NCBI GenBank assembly: GCA_047639555.1
Contig: JBLIOE010000020.1
Coordinates: 4,100-68,099 of the forward strand
DNA length: 64,000 nt
Origin: Candidatus Aldehydirespiratoraceae bacterium
Lineage (GTDB): Bacteria; Actinomycetota; Acidimicrobiia; Acidimicrobiales; Aldehydirespiratoraceae
Direction of reading: 5' to 3'
Under the pieces are notes generated by a model, which was given only the letters and a program-made list of their open reading frames with translations, was not told where the DNA came from and ran no database searches. The position numbers and the translations under genes are program-made. Shown here piece after piece: positions 6,065-56,732 of the stretch. The number at the start of each line of letters is the position of its first letter. Position 1 is the stretch's first letter.

Positions 6065-6340
6065 ATGTCCAACGACATGCTGGTCATGAGCAAGTCTCAG
6101 ATGGAGCAACTGGCCGTCACGTTCGGCACCCAGGCCGAAGCGGTCCAGCAGGTGATCAAGGCGATTCAGGGTGGTCTCGACGGCACGACCTGGCAGGGGA
6201 ACCGCTCGAACCGGTTCCGCGAGGCCTGGGCCTCCGAGTTTCGCCCGAACCTGATGAGCCTCGTCGATGCACTCGGCGAACACTCCGCCTTCATCGGGCG
6301 TGAACTACAGGCCGGCGTTTCGGCTCTCGACACGGTCTGA
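6065..6340 (+). CDS. WXG100-family (ESAT-6-like) type VII secretion substrate
   Basis: 91 aa with a predicted helix-turn-helix layout and a central W-Q-G (..GLDGTTWQGNRSNRF..). It has a good RBS and sits immediately upstream of the FtsK/SpoIIIE ATPase gene. Confidence 0.8.
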   Translation: MSNDMLVMSKSQMEQLAVTFGTQAEAVQQVIKAIQGGLDGTTWQGNRSNRFREAWASEFRPNLMSLVDALGEHSAFIGRELQAGVSALDTV

Positions 6341-6362
6341 CAACGCGAAAGCGGTCGGGGCC

Positions 6363-9300: not shown

Positions 9301-10484
9301 CGGGTGGCCTCGCCCCTCTCGCGAACCTGCCAGCGACCGGCACCTACTGTGGGCCGAGCGATGTGGTGCGTCGTGGTCGACTCTTGCGATGGCTGGATGA
9401 CGAAGTGGGCCGCCGTCGAGTCGACCCCATGGCCGCCGCCCCCGAGATCTTGGTGATCATCGACGACTTCGGGGGGTTGGCGCGAGCCCACGACCCGGTG
9501 AAGGAAGCCGCGGTGCACGAACGCCTCGCGCGGGTCTGGGCCGACGGCCCCGCAGTGGGAATAAAGATGGCGGTATCGCTGCGCCGCTCGGCCGACCTGG
9601 CGCCGGCGCTGGCCGCGACGGTCGGGGAGGTCATCTTGCATCGCACCGCCGACCAGGCCGACGCGCTGCGATTCGGGCTCGTCGGGTCCACCGCCGGGTT
9701 CGTTGCCGGGCGCGTGATACGAAGCAGGGATGGAGCGACCGCTCACGTGCTGCTTCCCGCAGCCGGGGACGACTTTCTCCGGCACATCGTGGCCCGCCGG
9801 TGCGACGCCGACCCCGTGTTCGAGCCGCACCAGGTGGGCGAACTGGCGGCCGAGATCCCGTGGTCGACCGTCAGCGGCACGTTCCGCCTCGGCGCTCACG
9901 ACTGGTCGTTTGCCATCGGCGTTCGCGACCGCGATCTCGAACCAGCGATTGTGCGTCTGCACACAGGCGAACACTTCCTCGCCCTTGGTCCGGCCCGATC
10001 GGGTCGCACCAATACCCTCGCCGCCATTGCTCGGTCGGCCGGTCCTCACGCAATCGTTGTGGGCAACGGGTCACTTGCCCAACGCACCGGAATTGAGCCG
10101 ACGGATGCCGCGGAACTGGCCGCCGTCATCACCGCTCGAGAAGGTGGCGCCATCGTTTTGGTCGATGACTGCCTTGAGGTCGACGATCCCCTCGGGACGC
10201 TGGTCGCATTGGTCGCGGCGCCGCCCGCGGGCGTGCATCTCGTGGTGGCGGCTCGACCAGATCGTTATCGGTCGGCCTACGGCCATTGGGCGAGCGACAT
10301 CAAGTCCTCTCGAGTGGGAATATTGCTTCGCCCCGAGCCGCTCGATGGTGACTTGCTCGGTCAACAACTCCCGGCCCGACTCGGTCTTCCGGCGGTTCCC
10401 GGCCGCGGAATTGTGGTCGCCGACGGCTCGATCGAGATCGTCCAGGTCTTCCAGACCGATGCGTCGAATCGCTGTGACCCATGA
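6363..10484 (+). CDS. eccC: type VII secretion FtsK/SpoIIIE-family ATPase (EssC/EccC-like) with N-terminal FHA domain
   Basis: ATG 6363 (MRIVHRSERG...). FHA-like segment GRSVATDVSLDDAALSPRHFSV...DHGTRNGTSIEG (~6640-6910). Two TM helices (~7060-7190). Three P-loop domains: GGTTGSGKSELL with DEFASL and ILATQRP, GGPGSGTTTTL, and GPARSGRTNTL. Confidence 0.85.
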   Translation: MRIVHRSERGERIVEIDIDDPTRPIAALCAALGLAAESGERIGLAIDGRSFDPTTPLAATNVCEGSVVDSTPTSTLITPTSITIQNPTPSARALAIVGGVRAGGSVPVEGGLCVGRSVATDVSLDDAALSPRHFSVTAGGASLIDHGTRNGTSIEGHPVAAPAALAADQMIRAGTTRLMVRDIEGDTPVAVASGLGARGGSIPFNRPPRCEPPTEMAPLRAPGLRPEAPVIEPISVAGIVLPILAGGVMALVFSPFMAIFAALGPVLTIGTWLERRRRARREFRTAERVFLAEMDDLRDVLPSARRAEVWRRRTLHPDPAEVVRRAAGPSVRVWERRPGHADSFLVAIGAADEPFRPPLRANQSADVAVEVGRVLAGLPLLPDVPVPLDLGPGKTVGLVGDRGACLAIARSLVVQMATHHGPADLAVAVGADEPRRWRWCEWLPHAADHASGLRGVTVVTTDDSRAAESIRAMQGERLLLAVLDGDDPFQGRTTVGRILAAADRVATIVLVADEHRLPATCDMVVRADEFGRVTLIDPRQASPGRSALGWGVSLATAQYAARRLARLDDPELPVAGAGVPSAAPLLSLLDIQGDDAAEVEARWRATDGTADLASPIGLDADGVVSLDLVREGPHVLVGGTTGSGKSELLRSLVAGLAASADPDHVAMVLVDYKGGAAFDCCADLPHVAGLVTDLDETLAARALRCLEAELHHRELRLRELGAEDLPAFRRLAAGRDDIDPLPRLIVVVDEFASLASDLPEFLNALVGIAQRGRSLGVHMILATQRPAGVVTDDIRANTSCRIALRVTDRGDSSDVIDSPDAAAIPRHRPGRAIARFGPGELVPFQSALATGCSDGRAGVSLVLPRATKPNVARDTDLQRLVRSIGDAHRARGGGLPRSPWPPALPTVATQAAHDAAAGEWLLVDEPDRQQQRTDGWLPADGHLCVVGGPGSGTTTTLATAALAASAVDQDRHLHVIDLDAGGLAPLANLPATGTYCGPSDVVRRGRLLRWLDDEVGRRRVDPMAAAPEILVIIDDFGGLARAHDPVKEAAVHERLARVWADGPAVGIKMAVSLRRSADLAPALAATVGEVILHRTADQADALRFGLVGSTAGFVAGRVIRSRDGATAHVLLPAAGDDFLRHIVARRCDADPVFEPHQVGELAAEIPWSTVSGTFRLGAHDWSFAIGVRDRDLEPAIVRLHTGEHFLALGPARSGRTNTLAAIARSAGPHAIVVGNGSLAQRTGIEPTDAAELAAVITAREGGAIVLVDDCLEVDDPLGTLVALVAAPPAGVHLVVAARPDRYRSAYGHWASDIKSSRVGILLRPEPLDGDLLGQQLPARLGLPAVPGRGIVVADGSIEIVQVFQTDASNRCDP

Positions 10485-15812: not shown

Positions 15813-16394
15813 TCAGGTGGACCAGCCGGCGATCAAGCCGCCCACAACGGTGTCGAGCAACGGGTCGACGGCGAGGCCGGGGGCCAGAGTGGCGACGGTG
15901 GCGACGCCGTGCACGGAGGCCCAGAGGGCGAGGCCGTACTCAAGTGGATCAGCGGGTCGAAGCTCGCCGGACTCGATGGCGAGCCCCAGGTTGTGGATCA
16001 TTGAATTGAAGACGGTGGTGGCGCCGTCGTGTTCGACATCGGCCTCGACGGCAATCTCGATCGCCTCGGGTCGGAACATGAACATCAGCGAGAAGAGCTC
16101 GGGCTCGTCGAGCGCGAAGTGCACGTAGCTGCGACTCGAGACCCAGATCATTTCGACGGGCGACTCGGGCTTTTCCTTCTGGAATCGTTCGTCGAGCGCG
16201 TCGTAGCCGACCTGCGCGCAGGCCCGCAGGAGTTGGTCGCGGCTCGTGAAGTGGGCATAGAGAGCGGGAGCGGTGACACCCAGCGATGTGGCCAATGCCC
16301 GCATCGAAAGCGCCTCGACTCCGCTTTCGCGAATGAGCGTGATCGAAGCGTCAACGATGCGTTCGGCGGTGAGCGGCGTCCGTATCTTGTTCAT
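15813..16394 (-). CDS. TetR/AcrR-family transcriptional regulator
   Basis: HTH ..ALSMRALATSLGVTAPALYAHFTSRDQLL.. The start overlaps the stop of the upstream permease (ATGA). Confidence 0.9.
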   Translation of the reverse strand: MNKIRTPLTAERIVDASITLIRESGVEALSMRALATSLGVTAPALYAHFTSRDQLLRACAQVGYDALDERFQKEKPESPVEMIWVSSRSYVHFALDEPELFSLMFMFRPEAIEIAVEADVEHDGATTVFNSMIHNLGLAIESGELRPADPLEYGLALWASVHGVATVATLAPGLAVDPLLDTVVGGLIAGWST

Positions 16395-18346
16395 GGTGTC
16401 TTTGCCTTCTGCGCTCGTTTGATCGCCCGGGCGGAAGTTCCGATGCCGCCGGAGGGGAGCTTGATGGCCGCAATGATCAGGAAGAGGCCACTGATCGCGA
16501 ACTGATATTGGGACGCGTCGTCGTTCATCTGGTCCATGCCCACGGTGAGCAAGCCTTCTTCGGTGAGAACGCCGGCGAGGAGCGCGGCGGCGGGCGCGGC
16601 GATGCCCGCGAGGTAGGTCATTGCCACCAGAACCAGCGACTTGATGGCGCCGAACGACGTGGTGGAGACGATGTTGTGTTGATAGGCGGTGAGGGTGCCG
16701 GCGATGCCGGCGAGGAACGCCGCAACGGCGTTGGCCGACAGCTTCACTCGCGGGGCCGAGATGCCGATTGCTTCGGCGGCCCGCTCATTGGCTCGAACGG
16801 CGAGCCATTGACGCCCGGTTGAACTCCGTCGAAGGTTCACCACGACATACATCGCGAACAGCAGGGCGAACAGGCAGAGAATGCCGAACTCCTTGCGGGG
16901 GAAATTCGCCCCACTGGCAGTGATCTGCAGATCGAGGCCGAGGACGGCCGGGGCATCGGGTCGAGAACCTTCGATGCCGCCCGTGAGCCAATCCCACTTG
17001 AACAGCAACTGCTCGACCGCAACTGCGGCAGCGAGCGATGCGATCGCCAGGGTGAGCCCTCGCACCCGGATGGCGGGAAGCCCGGCCAGCGTGCCGACGA
17101 TCACCGCGACCAGAGTGCCAAGAATCGGAGTCCACGGGAAGCCCAGGCCCAGGAGGTCGCCAGCTTTCACCATACTGAAGGCCGCAGTGCCCGCGAGGGC
17201 GAAGGTGGCAAGCGAGATCTGGCCAACGAAGCCCGTCAACGCGATCACCGAGAGGGCCATCACGCCCGAGATCGCCGACAAAATGATGGCCTGGCGCCAT
17301 TCGCTCCCGAGCGTGAACAGGCCGACAACGCCGAGCGCGACGACGATGATCGTGACCCACATTGTTCGGGTGGGATCGGGAGCGCTCGGCAGCCGAGGCA
17401 TCTGGAGATCGCCTCGGCCGACGATCCGATCGCTGCGCAATGTCAGGGCGAGAAGCACGAGTAGGAACGGAAGACCTTCGGCCAGGCCGAGCCCGTTCAG
17501 GCTGTCCCATTCGGATTGGGCCGCCTGAATCTCGGACTGCAACATGCCGATCCCAAGGCCCGCCGCGGCGGCAATGCCGATCGAAGAGAATCGGGCGAGA
17601 AGTGCCGCACCGAGCGCGGGAACAACCAAGAGTGCGGTCGTTGCCGGGTTGAGATTGTTGAGAATCGGTGCGGCCAAGATCATGGCGCCGCCTGCCACCA
17701 GTGTGGCGAGCATCCAGTTCAGAGCGCTGATCTTGTCGGCCGAGATGCCCAAGAGCACCGCGCCGTTCTCGTTCTCCGCATTGGCTCGTGTGGCCAGTCC
17801 GAAGTTTGTGAACTTGCTCAACGCGGCAATAACGGTCGCCGCGATCACGACGATGGCGGCCAGTAGATAACGATCGGCCGGAATAAACGTGCCACCGAAC
17901 TCAACGATCCCGTTGGGGAGTGGACCGTCGATCGTCGGGGCGTCGGCGAAACGGACGTCCATGACACCGATGAGATAAATCATCAAGCCCAGGGAAGCGA
18001 CGATGCGGGCCAGTGGCGGAGCGCTGCGCAGCGGCCGGAAGATCAGCCAATAGGTTGCCAGCCCGACCAGCGCCGAGATCACGAGCGTGACGAGCAGCGC
18101 GCTGATCATGGTCGGCCGGTCGAGCAGGTGGAACCGGGCCGGCACAAACGGCAGCAACAGTGGTTGAACGACGTCGCCGCTCTGACGGAACTCGTAGTAA
18201 AAGAGCGCCAGGTAGGCGCCGAGGGCCGCGTGGGCAAAGTTGATGACGTTGCTGGCGCGATGGGTGACAACAACACCAACGGCGAGCGCGGCGATGACCC
18301 CGCCGACGCCGAGCCCAAGGAGCAGGTTGGAGATGAAAGTTGTCAC
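16391..18346 (-). CDS. branched-chain-amino-acid-type (HAAT) ABC transporter permease, fused LivH-LivM
   Basis: 651 aa and highly hydrophobic. The N-terminus LLLGLGVGGVIAALAVGVVVTHRASNVINFAHAALG is LivH-like, and the second half is LivM-like. Confidence 0.85.
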   Translation of the reverse strand: MTTFISNLLLGLGVGGVIAALAVGVVVTHRASNVINFAHAALGAYLALFYYEFRQSGDVVQPLLLPFVPARFHLLDRPTMISALLVTLVISALVGLATYWLIFRPLRSAPPLARIVASLGLMIYLIGVMDVRFADAPTIDGPLPNGIVEFGGTFIPADRYLLAAIVVIAATVIAALSKFTNFGLATRANAENENGAVLLGISADKISALNWMLATLVAGGAMILAAPILNNLNPATTALLVVPALGAALLARFSSIGIAAAAGLGIGMLQSEIQAAQSEWDSLNGLGLAEGLPFLLVLLALTLRSDRIVGRGDLQMPRLPSAPDPTRTMWVTIIVVALGVVGLFTLGSEWRQAIILSAISGVMALSVIALTGFVGQISLATFALAGTAAFSMVKAGDLLGLGFPWTPILGTLVAVIVGTLAGLPAIRVRGLTLAIASLAAAVAVEQLLFKWDWLTGGIEGSRPDAPAVLGLDLQITASGANFPRKEFGILCLFALLFAMYVVVNLRRSSTGRQWLAVRANERAAEAIGISAPRVKLSANAVAAFLAGIAGTLTAYQHNIVSTTSFGAIKSLVLVAMTYLAGIAAPAAALLAGVLTEEGLLTVGMDQMNDDASQYQFAISGLFLIIAAIKLPSGGIGTSARAIKRAQKAKTP

Positions 18347-19865: not shown

Positions 19866-21209
19866 ATGACTACGACCGAGGCAAACACCACTGAATCTGG
19901 CACCGAGCTGCCGTGGCACCTGCAGGGCAACTACGGCCCGATCAAGGAGGAGCTGAGCGTCCACGACCTCAAGGTCGAAGGCGAGATCCCCGCCGAGATC
20001 GACGGCGTCTACATGCGCAACGGGTTCAACCCGATCAGCGGATTTAGCGATCACTGGTTCTTCGGTGACGGCATGGTCCACGCGGTCGACATTCGCGACG
20101 GCAAGGCCTCGATCCACAACCGTTACGTGCGCACACCAGCGCTCGAAGGCGGCGCCGACGGCATGTCGATGGACCCGGCGAACTCGCCGGCCAACACCAA
20201 CATCGTGTCGCACGCGGGCCGTCTCTTCGCCGTGAACGAGGGCTTTGCTCCGTATGAGATGGACCATGATCTCAACACCATCGGGATGGAGAACTTCGAT
20301 GGGCAGATCGTTGGACCCTTTACCGCGCACCCCAAGATCTGCCCGGTGACCGGCGAAATGTTGGCCTTTGGTTACAGCGTCGTTGGGCCCGAGTTCCTTC
20401 GCTACTACCGATTTGATGCGGCGGGCACGCTGGTGCAGGCCGAGCCGATCACACTCCCCTCCGGCGTGATGATGCACGACTTCAACATCACGCGAAACCA
20501 TGTCGTCTGGATGGATCTCCCGGTCTGTTTCAGCCTCGACAAGGCCATCGCGGGCGAAGCCCCGTTTGGTTGGAATCCCGACAACGGATCTCGTCTTGGC
20601 GTCATGCCGCGCAACGGCGGCGATGCCGACGTCCGCTGGTTCGACGTTGAGCCGGGCTACGTCCTGCATCCGGTGAACTCCTGGGAAGAGGGCGACAAGA
20701 TCGTGATGGTCGTTTGCCGCCTCGACACGTTCATGGACGGTGGCTTCGACGACATCTCGGGCAAGGCCGAACTCTGGCGCTGGACCATCGACCTCGCGGC
20801 CGGCACCGTCAAGGAAGAACATCTCGACGACCGCAAGTCCGACTTCCCTCGCATCAATGATCGCCTCGTCGGGTTACCGGCTCGCTTCGGCTACACCCAG
20901 CAGCTCGGTCACACCGCCGACAACCCGTCGATGGGCCAGGAGCTCTACAAGTACGACCTTCAGACCGGCATCCCCGAGGTCCACCGGCTCGGCAACGTCA
21001 ACGGCGGCGAGCCGGTCTTCGTGCCTCGTGGCAAAGACGGTGCCGAAGACGACGGCTGGATCGTGCTCTTTGGCCACGATCTCGACACCGACGTCAGCGA
21101 GTTCCGCATCATCGATGCCCAGGACTTCAGTGGTCCACCCGTCGCTCGGGTGTTCTCTCCGCAGCGGGTGCCCTACGGCGCCCACGGCAACTGGATGCCC
21201 CGCGGCTGA
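19866..21209 (+). CDS. carotenoid/stilbene cleavage oxygenase family protein
   Basis: NYGPIKEE...EGEIPAEIDGVYMRNGFNP, HWFFGDGMVHAV, ANTNIVSHAGRLFAVNEG and MMHDFNITRNH (the four-His iron ligand pattern). Confidence 0.85.
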   Translation: MTTTEANTTESGTELPWHLQGNYGPIKEELSVHDLKVEGEIPAEIDGVYMRNGFNPISGFSDHWFFGDGMVHAVDIRDGKASIHNRYVRTPALEGGADGMSMDPANSPANTNIVSHAGRLFAVNEGFAPYEMDHDLNTIGMENFDGQIVGPFTAHPKICPVTGEMLAFGYSVVGPEFLRYYRFDAAGTLVQAEPITLPSGVMMHDFNITRNHVVWMDLPVCFSLDKAIAGEAPFGWNPDNGSRLGVMPRNGGDADVRWFDVEPGYVLHPVNSWEEGDKIVMVVCRLDTFMDGGFDDISGKAELWRWTIDLAAGTVKEEHLDDRKSDFPRINDRLVGLPARFGYTQQLGHTADNPSMGQELYKYDLQTGIPEVHRLGNVNGGEPVFVPRGKDGAEDDGWIVLFGHDLDTDVSEFRIIDAQDFSGPPVARVFSPQRVPYGAHGNWMPRG

Positions 21210-34123: not shown

Positions 34124-35371
34124 TTACACCCCCGAAAGAAGTTCTCTGTTGAGACTCTCCGTGGTCGCCTCACCACACAACGCCATCGTTCGACGCATTC
34201 CGGACCACAAGAAGTCCAAGAGCCAGTCGACGCCCGGTTCGCCGGCCGCGCCGAGGGCGTAGAGATACGGTCGGCCGAGCATCACCGCGTCGGCGCCAAG
34301 GGCGACGGCTTTCACGATGTCGCTGCCACGACGAACGCCGCCGTCCGCGATGATCTCGATGTCATCGCCGACCGCATCGCGGCAGGGGGCGACGAGATCG
34401 ATCGGCGCAGGCGAGTCGTCGAGTTGACGCCCACCATGATTCGAAAGACAGGCGGCATCGACGCCATGATCGCGGGCGAGTTCGGTGTCGGCGACGGACT
34501 GGATGCCCTTCAGCACAATCTTCCCGTCCCAGATCGACCGGAGCCATTCGATTTCCTTCCAGGACAGAGAGGGGTCGAATTGAGAGTTCATATGGGCGGC
34601 AAGATCTACGGCACTCGATCCGTCAGGGATCGCGCTGGCTGCGGTGCTGGTGGCCACGTTCGCGAAGACGATCGGTTCGTTGCGAAGGAAGTTCCATGTC
34701 CAGCTTGGACGGCGAGCACCATCAACGAGCGTGCCTACGCCGAGCTTGGGTGGAAGCTCCATGCCGCGACGAACGTCGCGTTCTCGGCGCCCGAGGTTCG
34801 CAGTATCGACCGTGAGAAGTAGAGCCTCGTAGTTCGCGGCGGCCGCCCGTTCGATCATGTCGCGCACCAAACCTCGGTCGCGCCACACGTAGACCTGGAA
34901 CCAGAGGCGACGGTTGCCCTCGCCGCCCCACGGGACTTCGTCGCTTGCTGCCGCCATCTCCTCTATAGAGCGGGTGCCCATTGTCGAAAGGGCGTAGGGG
35001 ATCCCGGCTCGCGCGCAAGCGCGGGCGACGGCCAACTCACCCTGTGGGTGGGCGATTCGGGTAAATCCCGTCGGGGCCAGGACGGCCGGGAACGGGGTGG
35101 ATCGGCCGAGGAGTCGACCGGAGGTGTCGATATCGCTGACATCACGAAGGACACGCGGGATCATGCCGAGCCGGGCGTAGCCGTCGACGTTGTTGGCCAG
35201 CGCTCGTTCGTCTTCTGCGCCTCCATCGATGTAGTCGAAGACGCCGGCCGGAAGCCGACGCTTCGCGTGCCGGCGAAGATCGTCGACGTTGGCAGTAGTC
35301 AGTAGCCGGCGCCTGTTGCCGTTGGGTTCGAAGCGCCGGAATTGGAGGACCGAACGCAGCGACTCCAACAT
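34124..35371 (-). CDS. FMN-dependent alpha-hydroxy-acid oxidase/dehydrogenase (LldD/glycolate-oxidase family)
   Basis: FDYIDGGAEDE, WFQVYVWRDR, LLLTVDT, SNHGGRQLD, DGGVRRGSDIVKAVALGA. The start overlaps the stop of the upstream ABC gene (ATGA). Confidence 0.85.
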   Translation of the reverse strand: MLESLRSVLQFRRFEPNGNRRRLLTTANVDDLRRHAKRRLPAGVFDYIDGGAEDERALANNVDGYARLGMIPRVLRDVSDIDTSGRLLGRSTPFPAVLAPTGFTRIAHPQGELAVARACARAGIPYALSTMGTRSIEEMAAASDEVPWGGEGNRRLWFQVYVWRDRGLVRDMIERAAAANYEALLLTVDTANLGRRERDVRRGMELPPKLGVGTLVDGARRPSWTWNFLRNEPIVFANVATSTAASAIPDGSSAVDLAAHMNSQFDPSLSWKEIEWLRSIWDGKIVLKGIQSVADTELARDHGVDAACLSNHGGRQLDDSPAPIDLVAPCRDAVGDDIEIIADGGVRRGSDIVKAVALGADAVMLGRPYLYALGAAGEPGVDWLLDFLWSGMRRTMALCGEATTESLNRELLSGV

Positions 35372-38300
35372 CAGCTGTCGCTGCGGTCGATCGCCCGTTC
35401 GTCGGTGCCGAGGTAGGAGGCGATCACGGCGGGGTCGCTGCGGACAGCCTCTGGATCGCCTTCGGCGATCACGGTTCCCGCCTCGAGACAGTAGACCCGG
35501 TCGCTGATGCTCATGATGAGCGGCATGTCGTGTTCGATGATGAGCATCGACGCACCGATCTCGCGGCGAATCTCCATGATGAGTGGACCGAACGCTTCGG
35601 CCTCGCGCTGGGCGACACCGGCCGTGGGCTCATCAAGGCACAGCACGTCGGCGTCAACGGCGAGAAGGCCGCTGAGTTCAACGATGCGACGGGTGCCGGT
35701 GGAGAGATCGGAGACAAACGAATCGGCATAGCGGCCAAGGCCGAGGAAGTCGATGAGTTCGTCGGCCTCGCTGCGCATCCGACGCTCCGACGCCATGTCG
35801 AGGAACAACGCACTCTTCGCGAACGAGGAGGGGTGGCGGGCTTCAAGTGCCACCTGGACACACTCACGAACGGTCAGCTCGGGGAACAGCGTGGCGGCCT
35901 GGAAGGTACGGCCGAGGCCGAGTGATGCTCGCTTCGGCGAGCTCAGTCCTTCCACATTCTTGCCCAGGAGCACGACCTTGCCGACGGAAGGCACGTAGCC
36001 GCCGATGGCATTCATGATGGTGGACTTGCCTGCGCCGTTGGTGCCGATCAGGCCGACGATCTCGTCCTTGCCGATTTCGATACTGACATCGTTGACCGCG
36101 ACGTTGCCGCCGAATCGGACGGTGATGTTGCGGGTCGACAATGCGACCTCGCGGCCCGAGTCGGAGACCGGGAGTGTGGGGTACACCTTGGGTGGACGGG
36201 GCGCCGCGGCGATCATGTCTCGCTGGAACCAGCGACCGACCATCAGCGGCCAGACGAAGGGCACAACCGGCTCGACGAGGAGGTACAGCGAGTATCCGAC
36301 CTTGGTGCCGGGCGCACCGATATGGGCCGCCGACTTCTGCGAAATCTTCACCAGTAAGGCCAGCGAGACCAGGCCCGAGATGAATGACGCCACCATGTAG
36401 AGGCCGAACCAACCGTTGTCGCCGTTGCCGGCGAGATGGTCGACTGCGGCGAGGGCAATAGTGGCCAGGCTGGCCACCTTCAGAACCAACACGATGCCGC
36501 TCAGTGCGGACTCCCACATCGGCGGAGTCTCCGAGGCGGTCTTGGTCGTTCCGTCGTCTCGTTTCAGAGCCTGCGGAGTTGCGGTGGTGCTCGTTGTCTC
36601 CACGAGGCCGTAGCGCCGCTCGGCTCGTACCACCGCCGCGTCGCGGACCTTGTAGGCGATCTGGACGAAGCCGCCGGGGAAGTACATCAACATCACGAGG
36701 AAACCCACGCTCGAGGTGACGAGGCTGATGAGGGCGTTGTCGGGGAAGAAGGTGGGAAGACCGCGCACCCAGAAGGCACCCAAGACCGGACCGATCACGG
36801 AGCCGAGGCCACCGATCACGACCATGTTGACGACCTGGAGTGAATCGCCGATTTGGAAGTGCGCTTCGGTGAAACGAATGTTGCGGGCGGCGTTGGCAAA
36901 CACCGCGCCGCCCAGGCCCGCGATGCCGCCGGCGACCGCAAACGCCGTGAGCTTCATGCGTACGGGCGAGACGGTGTACGCCGACGCAGTGTCGGTGTTG
37001 TCTCGCACTGCGATGATCGATCGACCAATGCCGGACCGTCGAAGGCGTCCGATCACGAGGATGCAAAGAATCAGGCAACCAAGGGCGAAGTAGAAGTACG
37101 TCCGTTGGTCCTTGAGATCCCAGGTGTAGAACCAGCCACGTTCGAACTTGACTGAACTGTCGCCGTTGCTGAAGAACGGTCGGTGGTAGATGTATTTCTC
37201 TGCCGCGATCGCGAACGCAAACGTGGAGATCGCGAGCAAGATTCCTCGCACACGGAGCGCGCCGATACCCGTGATGGCGGCGATGCCAGCGGTGGTGAAC
37301 ACCGCGATCACCATTGAGGGCACCGCGGGGATGCCGCTCCACTGCACATCGATAAGTCGAGTCTCGGCATAGCCGATGTCGAACTCGACGCCTCGGTTGA
37401 GCGCGGCGGCGGTGAGCGCGCCAATGCCGGCGTAGGACATCTGGGCAAGCGACACCTGGCCGGACCAGCCGGTGATGACGGTGAGCGAAGCGGTGACCAT
37501 CGCGAACGCGGCGATCGTGCTGTAGAGGAAGAACTTCGAGGGCACGATTCTCGTGGGTACCTCGTTCCAGAACCAGATGTATTGGTCAGCGAAGCTGAAG
37601 AGGCTCTCGTGATGCCATGAGATCATCACGATGACAAACAACAGCGTGCCGATCGCCAGGCGAGGCATGTGGCGGATCCACCAGATCTGACGGACGTGGG
37701 CCGGAAGGGGCTTCACCTTCGGCGCAAAGTTCAGTGGCCCTTCGTCGTTGTTGTTCCGGCTCTGCCAGTACATCGCGATGATGACGGCGATGAAGACGAG
37801 CAGGGTTGACAAGCCGGGGTCACGGTTGAAGTTGAAGGTGAAGAGGTTGTCGGCGAGCGCAATAACAACGCCGCCCAGCATCGCCCTCGGGAATGAGCGC
37901 ATTCCCGCGATGACTGCGGCGGCGAGGGCATTGGTCAGCGTGAACGGGCCGAGGTTGTCGATGCCCGACGGGCTGTTGCCACTGCTTAACAGGATCATCG
38001 AGAGCGTGGCGAGGAAGCCGGCGATTGTCCAGACGACCGACGAAACAACGTGGGGATTGATGCCGGAGAGTCGGCTGAGCTGGGGGTTGTCGGCCGACGC
38101 GGTAATCGACTTGCCGAACGTGGTGCGGCTCATCAGGAGGCCGAGAAGAACGGCCAGGATCGGAACGAGAATCAGCTTCTGGATCTCGGGTCCCTTGATG
38201 AGGATGCCCTCATCGGCGCCGATACCAATGGAAGGGAAGCCCTCGAACACGCCGCCCACGCCTTCCCAACTTCGACCAATCGCGGCCGGATACTTCACCT

Positions 38301-38685
38301 GCGAGCCCTCGACGTCGGGGAAGGTGAGGAGCACGATCGCTCGCCAGAAGTCGGCGATGGCCACTGTGGCGATCAACAAAACAATGCGCGGTCTATGGAA
38401 GAGCCGTTTGACCACGATCACTTCGGTGACGAGGCCCAAAAGGGCGCCAACCAGCAGCGAGATCACGAGCGCAAGCCAGAACGGGAAGTTCCAGTTCAGG
38501 ACTAAGAGTGCGAAGAGCGCAGCACCGGGCAAGCCCATGTTGCCGGCGCCGAAGTTGATCACTCGCGTACTGCGGTAGATCAGCACGATGCCCATGGCCA
38601 GAAGGCCGAAGACCAAGCCTTGGACGAGTGTGAGGAAGAGCAGGCGACGGGTGATCCACGTGGCCAGTAGGAAAGTGCTCTCCAT
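35371..38685 (-). CDS. triple-fused HAAT ABC transporter protein: LivH-like permease + LivM-like permease + extra TM insert + LivG-like ATPase
   Basis: 1104 aa. The N-terminus GLLAMGIVLIYRSTRVINFGAGNMG is LivH-like (~37720-38685). A LivM-like block follows (~36650-37720), then an extra ~3-helix insert (~36140-36650). The ATPase has GLIGTNGAGKSTIM, LSTGTRRIVEL and LCLDEPTAGV (35371-~36140). Confidence 0.8.
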   Translation of the reverse strand: MESTFLLATWITRRLLFLTLVQGLVFGLLAMGIVLIYRSTRVINFGAGNMGLPGAALFALLVLNWNFPFWLALVISLLVGALLGLVTEVIVVKRLFHRPRIVLLIATVAIADFWRAIVLLTFPDVEGSQVKYPAAIGRSWEGVGGVFEGFPSIGIGADEGILIKGPEIQKLILVPILAVLLGLLMSRTTFGKSITASADNPQLSRLSGINPHVVSSVVWTIAGFLATLSMILLSSGNSPSGIDNLGPFTLTNALAAAVIAGMRSFPRAMLGGVVIALADNLFTFNFNRDPGLSTLLVFIAVIIAMYWQSRNNNDEGPLNFAPKVKPLPAHVRQIWWIRHMPRLAIGTLLFVIVMISWHHESLFSFADQYIWFWNEVPTRIVPSKFFLYSTIAAFAMVTASLTVITGWSGQVSLAQMSYAGIGALTAAALNRGVEFDIGYAETRLIDVQWSGIPAVPSMVIAVFTTAGIAAITGIGALRVRGILLAISTFAFAIAAEKYIYHRPFFSNGDSSVKFERGWFYTWDLKDQRTYFYFALGCLILCILVIGRLRRSGIGRSIIAVRDNTDTASAYTVSPVRMKLTAFAVAGGIAGLGGAVFANAARNIRFTEAHFQIGDSLQVVNMVVIGGLGSVIGPVLGAFWVRGLPTFFPDNALISLVTSSVGFLVMLMYFPGGFVQIAYKVRDAAVVRAERRYGLVETTSTTATPQALKRDDGTTKTASETPPMWESALSGIVLVLKVASLATIALAAVDHLAGNGDNGWFGLYMVASFISGLVSLALLVKISQKSAAHIGAPGTKVGYSLYLLVEPVVPFVWPLMVGRWFQRDMIAAAPRPPKVYPTLPVSDSGREVALSTRNITVRFGGNVAVNDVSIEIGKDEIVGLIGTNGAGKSTIMNAIGGYVPSVGKVVLLGKNVEGLSSPKRASLGLGRTFQAATLFPELTVRECVQVALEARHPSSFAKSALFLDMASERRMRSEADELIDFLGLGRYADSFVSDLSTGTRRIVELSGLLAVDADVLCLDEPTAGVAQREAEAFGPLIMEIRREIGASMLIIEHDMPLIMSISDRVYCLEAGTVIAEGDPEAVRSDPAVIASYLGTDERAIDRSDS

Positions 38686-41993: not shown

Positions 41994-42729
41994 TCGCCGG
42001 TGGTCCCGCGCTCGTGTGGCGAGTGCCAGGCGGATCGACCGCCCATAGAGCCTGGTCGCCCCACTTGCCGTCGTAGACAAAAGAAGAGAGTGGGACCCGG
42101 CGCACGGGGCCGTGGTTTCCTTCGGGGCGGCCGAGAGTAATTGTGGCGCTGATCGTCGCCTCGTCAGGAATCTCGAGGAGAGCACGGAGCTCCTCTTCGA
42201 CGTATGCATGCCAGATCGTGATGACACCTCCGTAGCCGAGTGCACGCGCCGCAAGAAGAAGGTTCTGGCACGCCGGATAGACCGAGGCGCCCTCCGTTGG
42301 AGAGGGTGCTCGGTGCCGGACAAAGCACGGCAGGACCAGAGCCGGAACCGTCTCCATCTGGTCGACATAACGTTCCATCGAGCGCGCCATCCGCGCCTTC
42401 GGCGAGTTGGGATCGTTACCCGACCCCTTGTCGTAACCCTCGTTGGCGCGCTTGGCCGCCCACACCGCCCGTGCGCCCCGGCCGACAATGGCCTTTGCCT
42501 CTCGGGCAATCTCGCCGTTCGTGAGCACGATGAACCGAAACGGCTGACGATTCGATCCGCTCGGCGCTCGTGAAGCAGCGAACAGGATGTCGCGCAGGTC
42601 CTTCTGAGGAATGGGTTCGTCGGTGTAACGACGAATCGACCGGGTGGTTGTGAGTCCTTCCAGAAGGCCAATGGTGTCGGCAGCGAGTGCTTGTTCTGAC
42701 AGTGGCTGGTCGGCGAGTTCGTTCGTCAT
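41983..42729 (-). CDS. nitroreductase family protein
   Basis: TRSIRRYTDEPIPQKDLRDILFAASRAPSGSNRQPFRFIVL. Confidence 0.85.
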   Translation of the reverse strand: MTNELADQPLSEQALAADTIGLLEGLTTTRSIRRYTDEPIPQKDLRDILFAASRAPSGSNRQPFRFIVLTNGEIAREAKAIVGRGARAVWAAKRANEGYDKGSGNDPNSPKARMARSMERYVDQMETVPALVLPCFVRHRAPSPTEGASVYPACQNLLLAARALGYGGVITIWHAYVEEELRALLEIPDEATISATITLGRPEGNHGPVRRVPLSSFVYDGKWGDQALWAVDPPGTRHTSAGPPATKS

Positions 42730-43715
42730 GTTTGGGCCTCGAGCGTGGGAAGGGGTGTTCCTTCGAAGTAACGACGCGGATTGTGATGGGTCAGTCGATC
42801 GATCGCCGCATCAGCCATTCCGAGGTCCTGGAGCTTAGGGATGATCTCCTCGTCGAATCGTGTGGGCACAAACTGATCGGCGATGCGGGCGCGGAGACCG
42901 GGAGGCCACGGGTTGCCCTTCCAACACCACACGGAATCATGCGACACGACGATCCGGTCGCCGGCGCCATGATCGACAAGTCGGCTCAGGGCGGCGGCCC
43001 GGTCGTCGTCGCTCACGGTCGGAATGCCGAAACGGTCGAAGCCGAGATAGCTGCCGCCTCGCGCGATGCGCAGGTGGTAATCGGTGTCGGTCGAACCACA
43101 CGAATGGCCGATGATCACCCGCTCGGGTGCGACGCCCGCGGCCGTCAACACCGCTTGCTGTCGATCGCCGAGGGTGCCGTCTTCCGTGTGGGTGGTGATC
43201 GGTGCGCCTGTCTGGGCGGCGGCCCTTGCCGCGGCGGCAAACACGGCGGCTTCATGTTCCGTCAGATCGCCGAGGCCGGTGCCCACCTTGATCAGGCCTG
43301 CTCGAACACCGCTCGACCCGATGCCATTGGTCAGTTCGCCAATGAACAACTCAGCCATGACCTCGCTGATGTCTTCATAACGAGCCCGAAACTTCCAGTG
43401 GGCGTGTCCGCCCTCATGTTCTTTGTAGAGGCCAGTCGCACAGATGATCTGGAAACCAGTCGCCTCGGCGACGGCCACCATGAGTTCGAGGTCGCGGCCG
43501 AGATCGTTTGGACACGGGTCGATCATCGACTGATACCCAAGTGCCTGCATCGACTCGACTCGCTCGATACAGAACCGTGTGGCGGCGGCCCGGTCGAACG
43601 GTTCGTTCGTGGCGGACTCCCAACCCGGATAACCCACCGTCAGGTGCTCGTGCATCAGGGTGCGGCCCAGTTGACTGCTGTTGATGGGTCCGGTCACCGT
43701 CTGGATCGTGGTCAT
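42726..43715 (-). CDS. phosphotriesterase-related (PTE/Php family) metal-dependent hydrolase
   Basis: LGRTLMHEHL at the N-terminus and later ITTHTEDG, GHS and VSHD, typical of the PTE amidohydrolase family. Confidence 0.8.
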   Translation of the reverse strand: MTTIQTVTGPINSSQLGRTLMHEHLTVGYPGWESATNEPFDRAAATRFCIERVESMQALGYQSMIDPCPNDLGRDLELMVAVAEATGFQIICATGLYKEHEGGHAHWKFRARYEDISEVMAELFIGELTNGIGSSGVRAGLIKVGTGLGDLTEHEAAVFAAAARAAAQTGAPITTHTEDGTLGDRQQAVLTAAGVAPERVIIGHSCGSTDTDYHLRIARGGSYLGFDRFGIPTVSDDDRAAALSRLVDHGAGDRIVVSHDSVWCWKGNPWPPGLRARIADQFVPTRFDEEIIPKLQDLGMADAAIDRLTHHNPRRYFEGTPLPTLEAQT

Positions 43716-53870: not shown

Positions 53871-55093
53871 GTCACCGCGCCCTTCACCTTGAGGTCGATG
53901 ACCTCGTCCATGTCCATGCCGAGGTCGCCGGTGAGGATCTCGTCGCCGTGTTCGTTGAATCCGGGCGCTCGACCGACTGGGCTCGGGGCGCCGTTGAACT
54001 GCACGGGTGTGGTCACGAGCTTGAACGGCACGCCGGCCTCGTTCTCCAGGTCTTGCACGTAGTCGTTGGCGATCGATTGCGGGTCGTCGATGATCTCGAG
54101 CGAGTCGAGCACCGGTGTCCACTGGCCGTTGAAGTTGGCGAGGAGTTCGACGACTTCGGCGAGTGAGCGCGAGCCGATCACTTCGTCGACAACCGCCTTC
54201 GCCTCACCCGCGTTCGCGGTCAGTGTCTCGTGGTCGACAAACCGAGGGTCTTTGATGAGCTCGGGGCGACCGATCACTCCACAGAACTCCTGCCAGTATT
54301 TCAACGGTTGGAGGCAGGTGATATTGACCACCCGGCCGTCGTTGGTCGGGAAGGTGCCGAGCAGCGGGTTGAAGACCGTCTTGCCGAGGTCAAACGGGCG
54401 CCAGGCGGTGCCGTTCACATGGCTCATCGCAATTCCGGACGCCATCGCCCACATGCCGGTGGCCAGGAGTGACACCTCAAGCGACTGTGGTTCTCCCGTG
54501 CGTTCGCGCTTCAGGAGGGCGGCACTGATGCCACCAGCAATTGTCATCGCCCCCATCGAGTCGCCGAACGCCGGGCCGGGCTGGCTTGGCATCCGCTCGT
54601 CGTCGACGTACCACGCACCCATCGCTGCGCCGGAACGGCACCAGAACGAAGTCATGTCGTAGCCGCCACGATTTCCTTCGGGCCCCTTCGGCCCCCAGGC
54701 CGTGCCCGCCGCGTAGACGATGTCCGGGTTGTGGGCTCGGACCTCCGTCTCGGTGATCTTCAGCCTCTCGCGCACGATTGGCGGCTTGTTGACGAGGAAG
54801 ACATCGCTGATCGCGATGAGCCGATGGAGGACGGCGAGGCCCTCCTCGGTCTTCAGGTCGAGGCCGAGGCTGCGCTTGCCGCGATTGGCGTGTTCCATGA
54901 TCGCGTGGACGTTGCCGCTGAGGTCGACCGACCCACTTTGCGCGAGCCCGCGCGCGGCATCGCCGCGAACGGCGTGCTCGATCTTGATGACGTCGGCGCC
55001 CCAATCGGCGAGGATCGCTGACGCTGCGGGGACGAACGTGTGGTCCGCCACTTCGAGAATTCGAATTCCATCCATAACTCCACTCATGCCCAT
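53867..55093 (-). CDS. CaiB/BaiF family III CoA-transferase
   Basis: GIRILEVADHTFVPAASAILADWGADVIKIE, GRP..I.DPRF region. Confidence 0.85.
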   Translation of the reverse strand: MGMSGVMDGIRILEVADHTFVPAASAILADWGADVIKIEHAVRGDAARGLAQSGSVDLSGNVHAIMEHANRGKRSLGLDLKTEEGLAVLHRLIAISDVFLVNKPPIVRERLKITETEVRAHNPDIVYAAGTAWGPKGPEGNRGGYDMTSFWCRSGAAMGAWYVDDERMPSQPGPAFGDSMGAMTIAGGISAALLKRERTGEPQSLEVSLLATGMWAMASGIAMSHVNGTAWRPFDLGKTVFNPLLGTFPTNDGRVVNITCLQPLKYWQEFCGVIGRPELIKDPRFVDHETLTANAGEAKAVVDEVIGSRSLAEVVELLANFNGQWTPVLDSLEIIDDPQSIANDYVQDLENEAGVPFKLVTTPVQFNGAPSPVGRAPGFNEHGDEILTGDLGMDMDEVIDLKVKGAVT

Positions 55094-55130
55094 GTCCTAT
55101 CACGGACCCATTTGCGATAAGGGTGTGCCC

Positions 55131-55646
55131 ATGAACGCCGAAGACTTCACACCGAGCGCCGACGAGCTGATCGCGAACAACGCCATCTATGCCGGGTCCT
55201 TCGACCCTCGAGGCAAGAAGGTCAGGCCGGTTCGCCAGCTGGCGATCGTCGCGTGCATGGATTCGCGGATGCCGATCTTCCCCATCCTGGGGCTCGATAG
55301 AGGCGACGCCCATGTGATCCGTAATGCCGGCGGAGTGGTGACGGACGACGTGATTCGTTCGCTGTGCCTCTCGCAACGCTCGATGGGCACCCGGGAGATT
55401 GTGCTTCTGCATCACACCGATTGCGGCCTCCAACACGTGACCGAGGACGGGTTCAACGCTGAGATCGAAGCCGAGATCGGGATGAAGCCCACGTGGGCGC
55501 TCGAGTCATTCGACGACCCGTACGCCGATATTCGGCAATCGATGCAACGGCTGAAGCTCTCGCCGTTCCTTCTCCACAAAGACCACATACGAGGCTTTGT
55601 CTACGACGTGGCCGACGGCCGGCTCAACGAGGTTGCGGACGGCTGA
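55131..55646 (+). CDS. beta-class carbonic anhydrase
   Basis: Zinc ligands C-M-D-S-R (VACMDSRMP) and HHTDCG. Confidence 0.8.
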   Translation: MNAEDFTPSADELIANNAIYAGSFDPRGKKVRPVRQLAIVACMDSRMPIFPILGLDRGDAHVIRNAGGVVTDDVIRSLCLSQRSMGTREIVLLHHTDCGLQHVTEDGFNAEIEAEIGMKPTWALESFDDPYADIRQSMQRLKLSPFLLHKDHIRGFVYDVADGRLNEVADG

Positions 55647-55655
55647 AGCTGTCGT

Positions 55656-56732
55656 TCAGAGGGCGGGACGGATGCCGTAGGTGTCGCCGCCACCATTGGC
55701 GATGACATCGTCGAGCCAGGTGGTGCCGTAGCTGTCGGACACTTCTTGCGCCATGTCGCTCGCTTCGCCGGGCGGGGTGGACTCAAGGGTCCAGGCTTGG
55801 CGCTTGTAGGTCCAGTTGCTCGGATCGGCGGCGTGCGCCTGCTTCCAAAACGGAACCGCGGCGTCCTTCCCGACAGTGTCGTGAAGGTGGCACCCGAGCT
55901 CGAAGAGCGCGGCGGCGCGGCTGTGATCGATCGGACGAGGCAGCGAGGCCTCGATCACTTCGTGCGGGGCCATGGCGAAGCGGCTCTCGGCGCCGTTCTC
56001 GACCCAGTCGACGATCGCGGCCCGATAGTCCTCGCCTTGGTCGGGGAACTTCTTGATCTCGGTGAACAGCATCTTCATACGCTCGGGGAGGTCGTCGGTG
56101 ATTTCCACCGCCCGCATTGGCGAAGCTTCGAGTGATGCCGACTCGGGTGGCCGAACCAGCGTTCCAGTTTCGTCGATCCACACGGCCATCGGCACGTTGT
56201 TGATGCCGAGGTGTTGGTCGACCAGGTGATAGGGATCGAGCAGCGATGGATGAGTCGGCGACGCCGCCGCGATCCACTCGGTGGTCTTCGAAGGATCGAG
56301 ATCGAGGGCGACCGTGACAACGGTGAGTCCCTGGGATTCGAGTTCAGCGTGAAGTGCCTGCCACCCGGGCAGGCTGTGGCGACAACCTCACCACGAGGCC
56401 CAGGCGACAAGGAGTACCTTGCGGCCATGGAGCGAAGTGAGCGAGAAAGGGTTGCCGTCGGCGTCAGTGAATGGCAGGTCGGGGACGACCGCTGTTGTGA
56501 GTGCGCGACCGCCACTTTCTGGGCCGAGGGCGACGAGGCCATGGTCGGGATCTTCAACGATCGCCATGCCGAGTTTGTTGGCTACGACGGAGACATCAAG
56601 CTGTCCGTCCGCCATCACGGCTTCAGGAGCAGGGACACATTGCTCGCCCTTACAGAGCCCCTCGGGCTTCGATTGCCAACCCGTCGCCGCGGCGAACGAG
56701 TCGGTATCGACGGTCAGTGAGTCGAGGATCAT
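55656..56732 (-). CDS. TlpA/ResA-like thioredoxin-fold protein with in-frame TGA (56388..56390) at the catalytic position; candidate selenoprotein (alternatively a pseudogene)
   Basis: ORFs 56388..56732 and 55656..56195 share one frame (359 codons in total) interrupted only by this TGA. Read-through gives LLVAWASW-U-GCRHSLPGW...VTVALDLD...VPMAVWIDETGTLV. Confidence 0.55.
56356..56374 (-). other. SECIS-like hairpin 13 nt downstream of the in-frame TGA
   Basis: The minus strand reads GCCUGCC-CGGGU-GGCAGGC, a perfect 7-bp stem with a G-rich pentaloop. Confidence 0.4.

Follow-up and report, generated by a model that had tools for sequence, protein, structure and literature searches.

A minus-strand gene in the 64-kb stretch of DNA analyzed here (the window) has a TGA codon inside its reading frame, and we put at about 93% the probability that the whole span is one gene of an uncultured Acidimicrobiales bacterium, encoding a 358-residue cytoplasmic selenoprotein of the NCBIfam family NF041054. 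Comparison with orthologous sequences strongly supports reading the in-frame TGA as a selenocysteine (Sec) codon. This selenoprotein family has already been curated, under the name "ResA-like WAxxUGC motif-containing protein," and for this reason the TGA call is correct and the gene is not a discovery.

Reverse-complement translation of the coding sequence gives 359 codons with a single internal stop, the TGA at codon 115, which lies in the context VAWASW-TGA-GCRHSLPGWQ. The terminator is another TGA (55658..55656), and the computed product is ~38.5 kDa with a pI of 4.5. Two open reading frames listed for this region, 56388..56732 (114 aa) and 55656..56195 (179 aa), are both in the frame of the coding sequence. 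An earlier, sequence-only reading had described one frame over 55656..56732 broken by a single TGA at 56388..56390, and retranslation agrees. The same reading described an intact downstream frame of 244 codons; the frame is intact, but it has 243 sense codons before the stop. The expectation that gene callers would split the gene is borne out in three metagenome assemblies, where it appears as fragments of 114 aa and 177 aa. The source pipeline likewise annotates it as two hypothetical fragments, and this copy comes from an unbinned metagenome contig. The features of the gene are collected in the table.

Table. Features of the proposed selenoprotein gene, in window coordinates
Feature	Coordinates	Strand	Evidence
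Complete selenoprotein coding sequence	55656..56732	-	Translation; NF041054 match; orthologs aligning over residues 1-358
Probable Sec-UGA codon, residue 115, at the N-terminal nucleophilic Cys position	56388..56390	-	TGA in orthologs; Cys column in homologs
Cys117 codon (TGT), probable resolving partner in U-G-C	56382..56384	-	G116, C117, and R118 invariant; 3kcm profile alignment
Probable bacterial SECIS core hairpin, encoding S120-L-P-G-W-Q-A126	56356..56374	-	Conservation; covariation; bSECIS criteria
ResA/TlpA-like thioredoxin-fold (Redoxin) domain, residues 83-192, with UGC center	56157..56486	-	Pfam; PDB profiles; Foldseek
N-terminal domain, ~80 residues, with invariant Cys pair	56493..56732	-	Invariant columns; predicted fold
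C-terminal helical domain, roughly residues 215-358	55659..56090	-	TPR-like matches; model helices; invariant columns

The TGA is a fixed feature of the gene. An alignment of orthologs, a check that the sequence-only reading had recommended, has TGA at the codon-115 column in each of 80 orthologs, all of them from different GTDB species and 55-89% identical to this protein, and in 83 of 83 orthologous loci with two further metagenome copies included. Three of three independent JGI metagenome assemblies carry the same TGA. Four homologs are Cys forms with true TGT or TGC codons at this column (WASWCGC), and in 34 full-length Cys homologs the column never varies from Cys. In the WASWCGC homologs the TGA is thus matched by the first redox Cys, which places it at the N-terminal redox Cys position that had been proposed for it. 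Within the 34 Cys homologs W111, A112, S113, C115, G116, and C117 are invariant, as is R118, and this gene has W111-A112-S113-W114-[TGA]115-G116-C117, a WAxxUGC motif. The idea that UGC arose from a CxxC motif when 3 nt were recently deleted was rejected because C-G-C is invariant across these 34 diverse homologs.

The frame on the far side of the TGA is maintained as well as the frame before it. At least 233 open codons follow the TGA in 81 of 83 loci, the other two running off contig ends. Values of dN/dS are 0.06-0.18 upstream of the TGA and 0.05-0.28 downstream, indicating purifying selection on both halves, and median ortholog identity is 61% on either side. TGA also serves as the terminator of this gene, of 11 of 17 long open reading frames in the window, and of 59 of 79 orthologs. 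Since it terminates this very gene, the codon has not been reassigned.

A hairpin follows the TGA, with a 7-bp stem that starts 13 nt after the TGA and a loop 20 nt after it. It consists of a 5' arm GCCUGCC (56374..56368), the loop CGGGU (56367..56363), and a 3' arm GGCAGGC (56362..56356), reproducing the element reported in the sequence-only reading. Folded alone, it has a minimum free energy (MFE) of -12.7 kcal/mol. Published limits for bacterial SECIS (bSECIS) elements are a loop of 3-9 nt, a stem of 4-16 bp, a UGA-to-loop distance of 16-37 nt, and an MFE of -7.5 kcal/mol or lower (PMC13188914). The hairpin lies within all of them, with a 5-nt loop that has G at position 2 followed by G, and its geometry and energy are consistent with the earlier remark that it is placed like a bacterial SECIS. 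All 72 distinct orthologous sequences retain the six inner pairs, and one pair covaries, with compensatory replacement of C-G by U-A (CG in 63, UG in 6, and UA in 3). This covariation is thin, comprising one pair in three sequences, and support for the hairpin comes mostly from conservation. Synonymous variation, measured as codon entropy, is suppressed at hairpin codons 120-125 (Mann-Whitney p = 0.002), and the hairpin is degraded in three of the four Cys forms. The element leaves a peptide footprint, (S/D)-L-P-(G/V)-W-Q-A, in Sec forms; one Cys form retains this footprint as a relic.

The arrangement of TGA and hairpin exceeds chance. A composite pattern was defined as a TGA in frame, flanked on each side by 60 or more open codons, a 6-7 bp stem 9-21 nt downstream, and an N-G-[G/U]-G-U loop. 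Across the window and related DNA (~0.55 Mb, both strands), it matched only this gene and 74 of the 80 orthologs. Folding thermodynamics alone was set aside as evidence either way: the z-score of local 54-nt RNA folding against shuffles is -0.83, which is not significant and is unremarkable because the sequence is rich in G+C (64%). Rfam gave no match over the whole window at gathering thresholds, and a permissive search of 56250..56480 gave chance-level matches only (Xoo2, E 0.37) and no SECIS family. A missing SECIS match is expected because Rfam covers bacterial SECIS elements poorly, a point also made elsewhere (bioRxiv 10.64898/2026.04.03.716425). The hairpin shares with the E. coli fdhF-type SECIS and the bSECISearch consensus a stem-loop in the coding sequence directly 3' of the UGA. 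It also shares with them a small apical loop with G and then G/U, and its spacing, stem length, and energy are within the consensus ranges. However, it is unrelated in sequence to the E. coli elements and, unlike the fdhF type, has no conserved lower stem reaching the UGA; binding by SelB would be by analogy with those elements.

Family membership is clear from the NF041054 (WAxxUGC_long) equivalog profile, which the protein matches with 478.7 bits against a cutoff of 300 (E 1.2e-143) when U in the query is replaced by C; residues 1-353 align to profile positions 1-349 of 354. The W-A-x-x-U-G-C pattern picked out in the sequence-only reading is the name of this curated family. The "long" architecture is present, with C27, C32, and an NWTYKRQAW motif conserved and orthologs aligning over residues 1-358. 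The protein has the same motif and the same three-part architecture as NF041054, with no difference of kind, and it is 49-50% identical to members such as those from Frankia sp. QA3 and Acidimicrobiia MAGs. A group of UGC-containing Prx/TlpA-like selenoproteins has been known since the 2008 GOS survey and is listed in two publications (PMC2398784, PMC13188914). It is described there as having a thioredoxin fold (pfam00578 / cd02966) and many Cys homologs and as commoner in nonmarine samples. The protein resembles this group (example MDE0950781.1) in motif and fold, but the group may be a shorter UGC redoxin and not the "long" subfamily. Neither publication gives a domain architecture, SECIS description, or function for the UGC group. 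The string "WAxxUGC" was found in no papers in the literature searched, the BSepDB and deep-Sep main texts mention neither the family nor the lineage, and the searched literature holds no experimental evidence on selenium incorporation or catalytic activity of the NF041054 family.

The protein is cytoplasmic and consists of an N-terminal CxxxxC domain, a ResA-like U-G-C core, and a C-terminal TPR-like helical domain. Pfam Redoxin (E 4e-14) and AhpC-TSA matches cover residues 83-192, so the Redoxin domain crosses the TGA. PDB profiles match the core domain to 3kcm and to ResA, TlpA, and DsbE structures. For a model of a 58%-identical Cys homolog, the best Foldseek match is ResA 2f9s (target TM-score 0.76, rmsd 1.8 Å), in keeping with the TlpA/ResA-like redoxin proposed from the sequence. 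In the profile alignment to 3kcm, UGC is one residue shorter than WCPPC. The N-terminal domain has no Pfam assignment; it is modeled as an α/β fold with the Cys pair on a predicted β-hairpin, and C27 (56654..56652) and C32 (56639..56637) are invariant within the motif G-x-C-[KR]-G-x-x-C-V-P. TPR_2 (PF07719) is annotated on the C-terminal domain of several homologs, and consensus TPR proteins are matched by one TPR-like stretch, at profile positions 276-309. In the Cys-homolog model helices are predicted from 217 to 318, and the NWTYKRQAW motif of this domain is invariant. No signal peptide or membrane anchor was found in a simple hydropathy test (maximum Kyte-Doolittle 19-residue window 0.88).

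The protein shares with Bacillus subtilis ResA and Bradyrhizobium TlpA a thioredoxin-fold subtype, the W-x-x-W-C context, and the cis-Pro region (VP). While those proteins use a CxxC motif, the motif here is U-G-C (C-G-C in Cys forms) with a one-residue spacer. Hydropathy also sets the protein apart from the extracytoplasmic thiol-disulfide oxidoreductases, ResA and TlpA of cytochrome maturation and DsbE, as it has neither anchor nor signal peptide, and the N-terminal CxxxxC and C-terminal TPR-like domains are additional to the ResA/TlpA layout. Scores fall far below the curated cutoffs for TlpA (NF047696, 54.4 vs 230), ResA (NF002854, 39 vs 170), and DsbE (26.9 vs 359).

Several other explanations of an internal TGA have to be weighed. 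A nonsense pseudogene, in which a TGC or TGT Cys codon mutated to TGA in a decaying gene, would account for a single internal stop that divides the frame and for the two fragments reported by gene callers. The conservation data effectively refute this reading, and its probability is negligible: the same TGA and intact frames persist in 80 species, dN/dS is well below 1 on either side with no more frame damage, and the TGA is followed by a conserved hairpin in which synonymous change is suppressed. The orthologs are not assembly copies of one sequence either, as their proteins differ by 11-45%. The conserved TGA, the purifying selection, and the retained hairpin bear out the original preference for Sec recoding over gene decay. 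It is just as improbable that a sequencing or assembly error has turned an ordinary Cys redoxin into this gene, even though the source is a metagenome contig and TGA is one base from TGC and TGT. An error would have to recur identically in three independent JGI samples and in 80 MAGs, drawn from many studies and assembled independently, and it would not explain a SECIS-type hairpin that goes with the TGA and has decayed in the majority of true Cys forms. Automated pipeline annotation suits a third possibility, two genes, with a 114-residue protein ending at the TGA and a C-terminal protein that initiates independently. We give this hardly any credence. The Redoxin domain straddles the TGA, and neither fragment would therefore hold a complete fold. 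No restart codon is conserved, the first start-like codon in frame lying anywhere from 4 to 67 codons downstream among orthologs, and database calls begin at differing residues, whereas the Cys forms are single proteins of 350-365 residues.

A different kind of alternative accepts one gene and has the UGA decoded by near-cognate Trp or Cys read-through, or has the Sec machinery lost, leaving a mostly truncated product. The surroundings of the gene and the searched literature, which holds no selenium-labelling data for the family, leave some room for it. Neither the window nor the ±3 kb flanks of the scanned orthologs yielded selA, selB, selD, or tRNA-Sec. The one tRNA that ARAGORN detected in 50 ortholog loci was a tRNA-Thr, and in the window it detected none. 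Regex motifs for SelA, SelD, and SelB had no match in six-frame translations of the window and ortholog DNA, and an NCBIfam scan of the ten window open reading frames of SelA/SelB/SelD size found no sel genes (the ten are transporters and dioxygenase, phosphotriesterase-like, and lactate-dehydrogenase-like proteins). Even so, decoding as something other than Sec is very unlikely. The conserved hairpin agrees with all bSECIS criteria and has no role in simple read-through, and a UGA at a catalytic Cys position is a classic Sec/Cys pair. General read-through would be costly because TGA is the organism's main terminator. NCBI curates the family as U-containing, and other members of the class Acidimicrobiia have documented Sec machinery, which is reported as universal in the order Actinomarinales (bioRxiv 10.64898/2026.04.03.716425).

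The rest of the window adds little about function. A search for further selenoprotein genes with a GC3 filter and a codon-usage model recovered only the NF041054 gene, the other candidates being ordinary gene ends or antisense artifacts. Neighboring β-carbonic anhydrase, CoA-transferase, and sulfatase genes are common only to the three closest relatives, and among distant orthologs a downstream PAC2-family gene (~30 loci) and a NUDIX gene (~18 loci) recur; neither of the two recurring neighbors suggests a redox partner.

On the pattern of Sec recoding established in bacteria, UGA codon 115 would be decoded as selenocysteine, with the hairpin acting as a SECIS that may bring SelB·GTP·Sec-tRNA(Sec) to a ribosome with the UGA in its A site. 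Thioredoxin-fold chemistry would place Sec115 at the N terminus of helix α1, where the attacking Cys of CxxC sits, and there it would most likely attack a disulfide, another oxidized sulfur, or a peroxide substrate. Cys117 may then resolve the intermediate through a selenenylsulfide that bridges the one-residue spacer of U-G-C. More speculatively, the C27/C32 pair could serve as a further redox relay, and the TPR-like helical domain could bind a partner or substrate. Taken together, these features allow a tentative proposal, possible rather than probable, that the "long" WAxxUGC proteins form a distinct cytoplasmic redox enzyme and are not ResA/TlpA disulfide reductases, one that would combine a strained selenenylsulfide, a C27/C32 relay, and a substrate-selecting TPR-like domain.

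No new biological principle is involved: the family is already documented, as are its Sec/Cys pair and the SECIS within the frame. Most metagenome gene callers split the gene, and public databases contain hundreds of Acidimicrobiales proteins with this kind of truncation. Once joined, the fragments yield the full-length selenoprotein and identify the lineage as a user of Sec.

Read on the minus strand, window 55656..56732 forms one 359-codon frame, uninterrupted save for a single internal stop. The two open reading frames named in the sequence-only reading make up the halves of that frame, and the coordinates and sequence statements given there for this stretch all proved correct on re-checking. 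Residues 83-192 match Pfam Redoxin (E 4e-14) and AhpC-TSA, which puts the TGA inside the domain. When U is written as C, the translated product scores 478.7 bits over residues 1-353 against the NCBIfam equivalog NF041054 ('WAxxUGC_long', ResA-like WAxxUGC motif-containing protein; cutoff 300); scores with the TlpA, ResA and DsbE models are far under their cutoffs. The locus is also found in two further metagenome samples, and gene callers do split the gene as anticipated, giving fragments of 114 aa and 177 aa in 3/3 samples. The G+C content of the window is 63.7 %.

A scan using one genome per GTDB species recovered 80 orthologous loci (55-89 % identity, all aligned over residues 1-358), with uncultured Acidimicrobiales and Ilumatobacteraceae MAGs as the closest genomes. 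TGA occupies the motif column in 80/80 of these loci and in 3/3 metagenome copies, while four Cys-form homologs carry TGT or TGC there as real codons. Orthologs that end or degrade after this position would speak for a decayed gene, but at least 233 codons stay open beyond the TGA in 81/83 loci and the other two reach contig ends. On either side of the TGA, the orthologs share a median 61 % identity with the window protein; pairwise dN/dS ranges over 0.06-0.18 before the TGA and 0.05-0.28 after it. TGA is also an ordinary terminator, ending the selenoprotein gene itself, 11/17 long window ORFs and 59/79 orthologs; it is not reassigned in this organism. No conserved restart codon follows the internal TGA in the orthologs compared. 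Together, the conserved TGA, intact frames, dN/dS values, TGA terminators and missing restart rule out a pseudogene, a miscalled base, a split gene and a variant genetic code. The selenocysteine (Sec) interpretation was right and was soundly argued from the raw sequence.

The proposed SECIS-like hairpin belongs to the minimum-free-energy fold and alone folds at -12.7 kcal/mol. The bacterial SECIS consensus calls for a loop of 3-9 nt with G within the first two positions, usually then G or U, a stem of 4-16 bp, a UGA-to-loop distance of 16-37 nt and an MFE of at most -7.5 kcal/mol (PMC13188914, Fig. 2 legend). The window hairpin, whose 5-nt loop has a G at position 2, whose stem is 7 bp long and whose loop lies 20 nt from the UGA, falls within every one of these published limits. 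Among 72 distinct sequences aligned over the TGA plus 45 nt, the inner six base pairs are standard in 72/72 and the outer pair in 51/72; the loop is C-G-[G/U]-G-U, with a rarer variant A-GGU-U that has an extra closing pair. Covariation is thin, with a single covarying pair (C-G 63, U-G 6, U-A 3) whose U-A cases arise from synonymous CUG→UUG and CAG→CAA changes. The synonymous-site analysis is clear. Codon choice is nearly frozen at codons 120-125 (Ser AGC 56/56, Pro CCC 75/80, Gly GGG 52/58 where GGC predominates elsewhere, Gln CAG 77/81), and mean codon entropy is 0.91 bits at hairpin codons vs 1.42 in the rest of the gene (Mann-Whitney p = 0.002). As a control, the same positions in the four Cys forms keep only 3/7, 3/7, 5/7 and 6/7 pairs. 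A composite search for an open-frame TGA with this hairpin type, covering the window and ~0.5 Mb of related DNA, matched solely the window gene and 74/80 orthologs. No Rfam family matches the hairpin region and its local folding z-score is not significant; neither counts against a SECIS element.

The Cys form that keeps 6/7 pairs, L085, reads CGCUCCC-CGGGU-GGCAGCG at the SECIS position; this looks to be the remnant of a SECIS that outlasted a recent Sec→Cys conversion, a situation described previously (PMC1794560). The hairpin also leaves a footprint in the peptide at codons 120-126 (window 56353..56375): after U-G-C-R-x, nearly all Sec forms read (S/D)-L-P-(G/V)-W-Q-A, and these columns are variable in Cys forms (e.g. 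DHLAAWQ, EDLRLWS, TDLYLWQ). This footprint could help to spot truncated Sec forms in protein databases. In one homolog, P0036 (328 aa, ENA), Ser takes the place of Sec (WASYSGC), SLPGWQA is kept and the C terminus is apparently frameshifted (…GGRAVVAPRPRARPRELDLQ…); decay of this copy, a TGA→TCA change and misassembly are the possible explanations.

Across 34 aligned full-length Cys homologs, C27, C32, W111-A112-S113, C115-G116-C117-R118, the cis-Pro region and an NWTYKRQAW motif near the C terminus are invariant. In a PDB profile search, residues 81-212 align with the thioredoxin-family protein 3kcm, ResA and TlpA. The family motif is one residue short of W-C-P-P-C in this search, and one TPR-like repeat appears at profile positions 276-309. 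AlphaFold2 modelled a 58 %-identical Cys homolog with high confidence (pLDDT 90.4, pTM 0.89). The closest known structure to this model is that of ResA in oxidised form (2f9s; target TM-score 0.76, rmsd 1.8 Å), and the structural search returned no solved structure covering the N- or C-terminal domain. While ResA and TlpA are membrane-anchored, the window protein (about 38.5 kDa, acidic, pI 4.5) has no hydrophobic segment (Kyte-Doolittle 19-residue maximum 0.88), and a cytoplasmic location is therefore most likely.

The gene neighborhood gives no clue to mechanism. Synteny with the window reaches the three closest relatives only, and more distant orthologs have PAC2-family and NUDIX neighbors alone in common: a PAC2-family (PF09754) gene comes next on the same strand in ~30 orthologous loci, and a NUDIX-like gene lies downstream on the opposite strand in ~18. 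P0027, a 526-aa homolog, seems to join the redoxin to its PAC2 neighbor, through either fusion or an erroneous gene call. In the window, the stop codons of the selenoprotein gene and a β-carbonic anhydrase gene are ~9 nt apart. In two distant Cys-form loci, L086 and L087 (Frankia sp. QA3 and one other genome), a small LEH/SnoaL_2-like gene overlaps the WAxxCGC gene start by 4 nt and may be its operon partner in this branch; the window lacks such a gene. The window's general context is aerobic-heterotroph metabolism.

Positions of features in the window and in homologous loci
Feature	Position	Strand	Remark
Internal TGA	56390..56388	-	codon 115; …GRKVLLVAWASW-TGA-GCRHSLPGWQALHAEL…
Hairpin GCCUGCC-CGGGU-GGCAGGC	56374..56356	-	begins 13 nt after TGA
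Selenoprotein gene	55656..56732	-	
β-Carbonic anhydrase (Pro_CA)	55092..55646	+	convergent with selenoprotein gene
Very long ORF	6267..10484	+	1405 aa
Fused LivH/LivM-type ABC permease	16391..18346	-	under equivalog cutoff
Carotenoid/lignostilbene-cleavage dioxygenase-like	19866..21209	+	under equivalog cutoff
FMN-dependent L-lactate dehydrogenase/MftD-like	34124..35371	-	under equivalog cutoff
Very long ORF	35371..38685	-	1104 aa
Phosphotriesterase-related	42726..43715	-	under equivalog cutoff
Cys-form homolog P0011	L085:1501-2547		GCA_050743285.1, Acidimicrobiia MAG; TGC; L-P-G-W-Q still encoded
Ortholog downstream flank (example)	L048:4752-6009		from the PAC2/NUDIX neighbor comparison
LEH/SnoaL_2-like gene	L086:1061-1504; L087:1064-1504		

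The observations comprise a UGA, a conserved SECIS-type hairpin, selection on the full-length product and, where a ResA-like fold has its nucleophile, a Sec/Cys pair. By analogy with the established bacterial system, SelB·GTP·Sec-tRNA(Sec) would bind the hairpin loop and bring Sec to the UGA. Thioredoxin-fold chemistry would then have Sec115 attack the oxidised substrate and Cys117 resolve the intermediate through a selenenylsulfide. More speculatively, C27/C32 might provide a further redox relay, with the TPR-like domain serving to bind partners. Neither sel genes nor tRNA-Sec occur within the window or the ortholog flanks searched. Sec machinery is supported indirectly by the UGA/SECIS arrangement over 80 species, by NCBI's curation of NF041054 as U-containing and by the reported presence of selA, selB, selC and selD throughout Actinomarinales, another Acidimicrobiia order (bioRxiv 10.64898/2026.04.03.716425).

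Relatives in the protein search fell into two classes. One consists of full-length proteins (about 350-365 aa) that carry WASWCGC, and includes entries to which the name 'ResA-like WAxxUGC motif-containing protein' has already been given (e.g. in Frankia sp. QA3). The other, more numerous, consists of 220-245-aa 'hypothetical' proteins with variable starts just past the motif, which are Sec forms shortened by gene callers. The Global Ocean Sampling (GOS) selenoproteome lists a 'Prx-like (UGC-containing)' family (pfam00578, motif UGC) with 46 Sec sequences, 855 Cys homologs and an enrichment in samples of non-marine origin (PMC2398784). From motif, fold and NCBIfam name there is little doubt that this is the same 'long' subfamily. 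Given this listing and the NCBIfam equivalog model, the window gene is not new: it adds one more member to a selenoprotein family that has already been curated. The practical value lies in correcting a split annotation and in marking the lineage as one that probably uses Sec.
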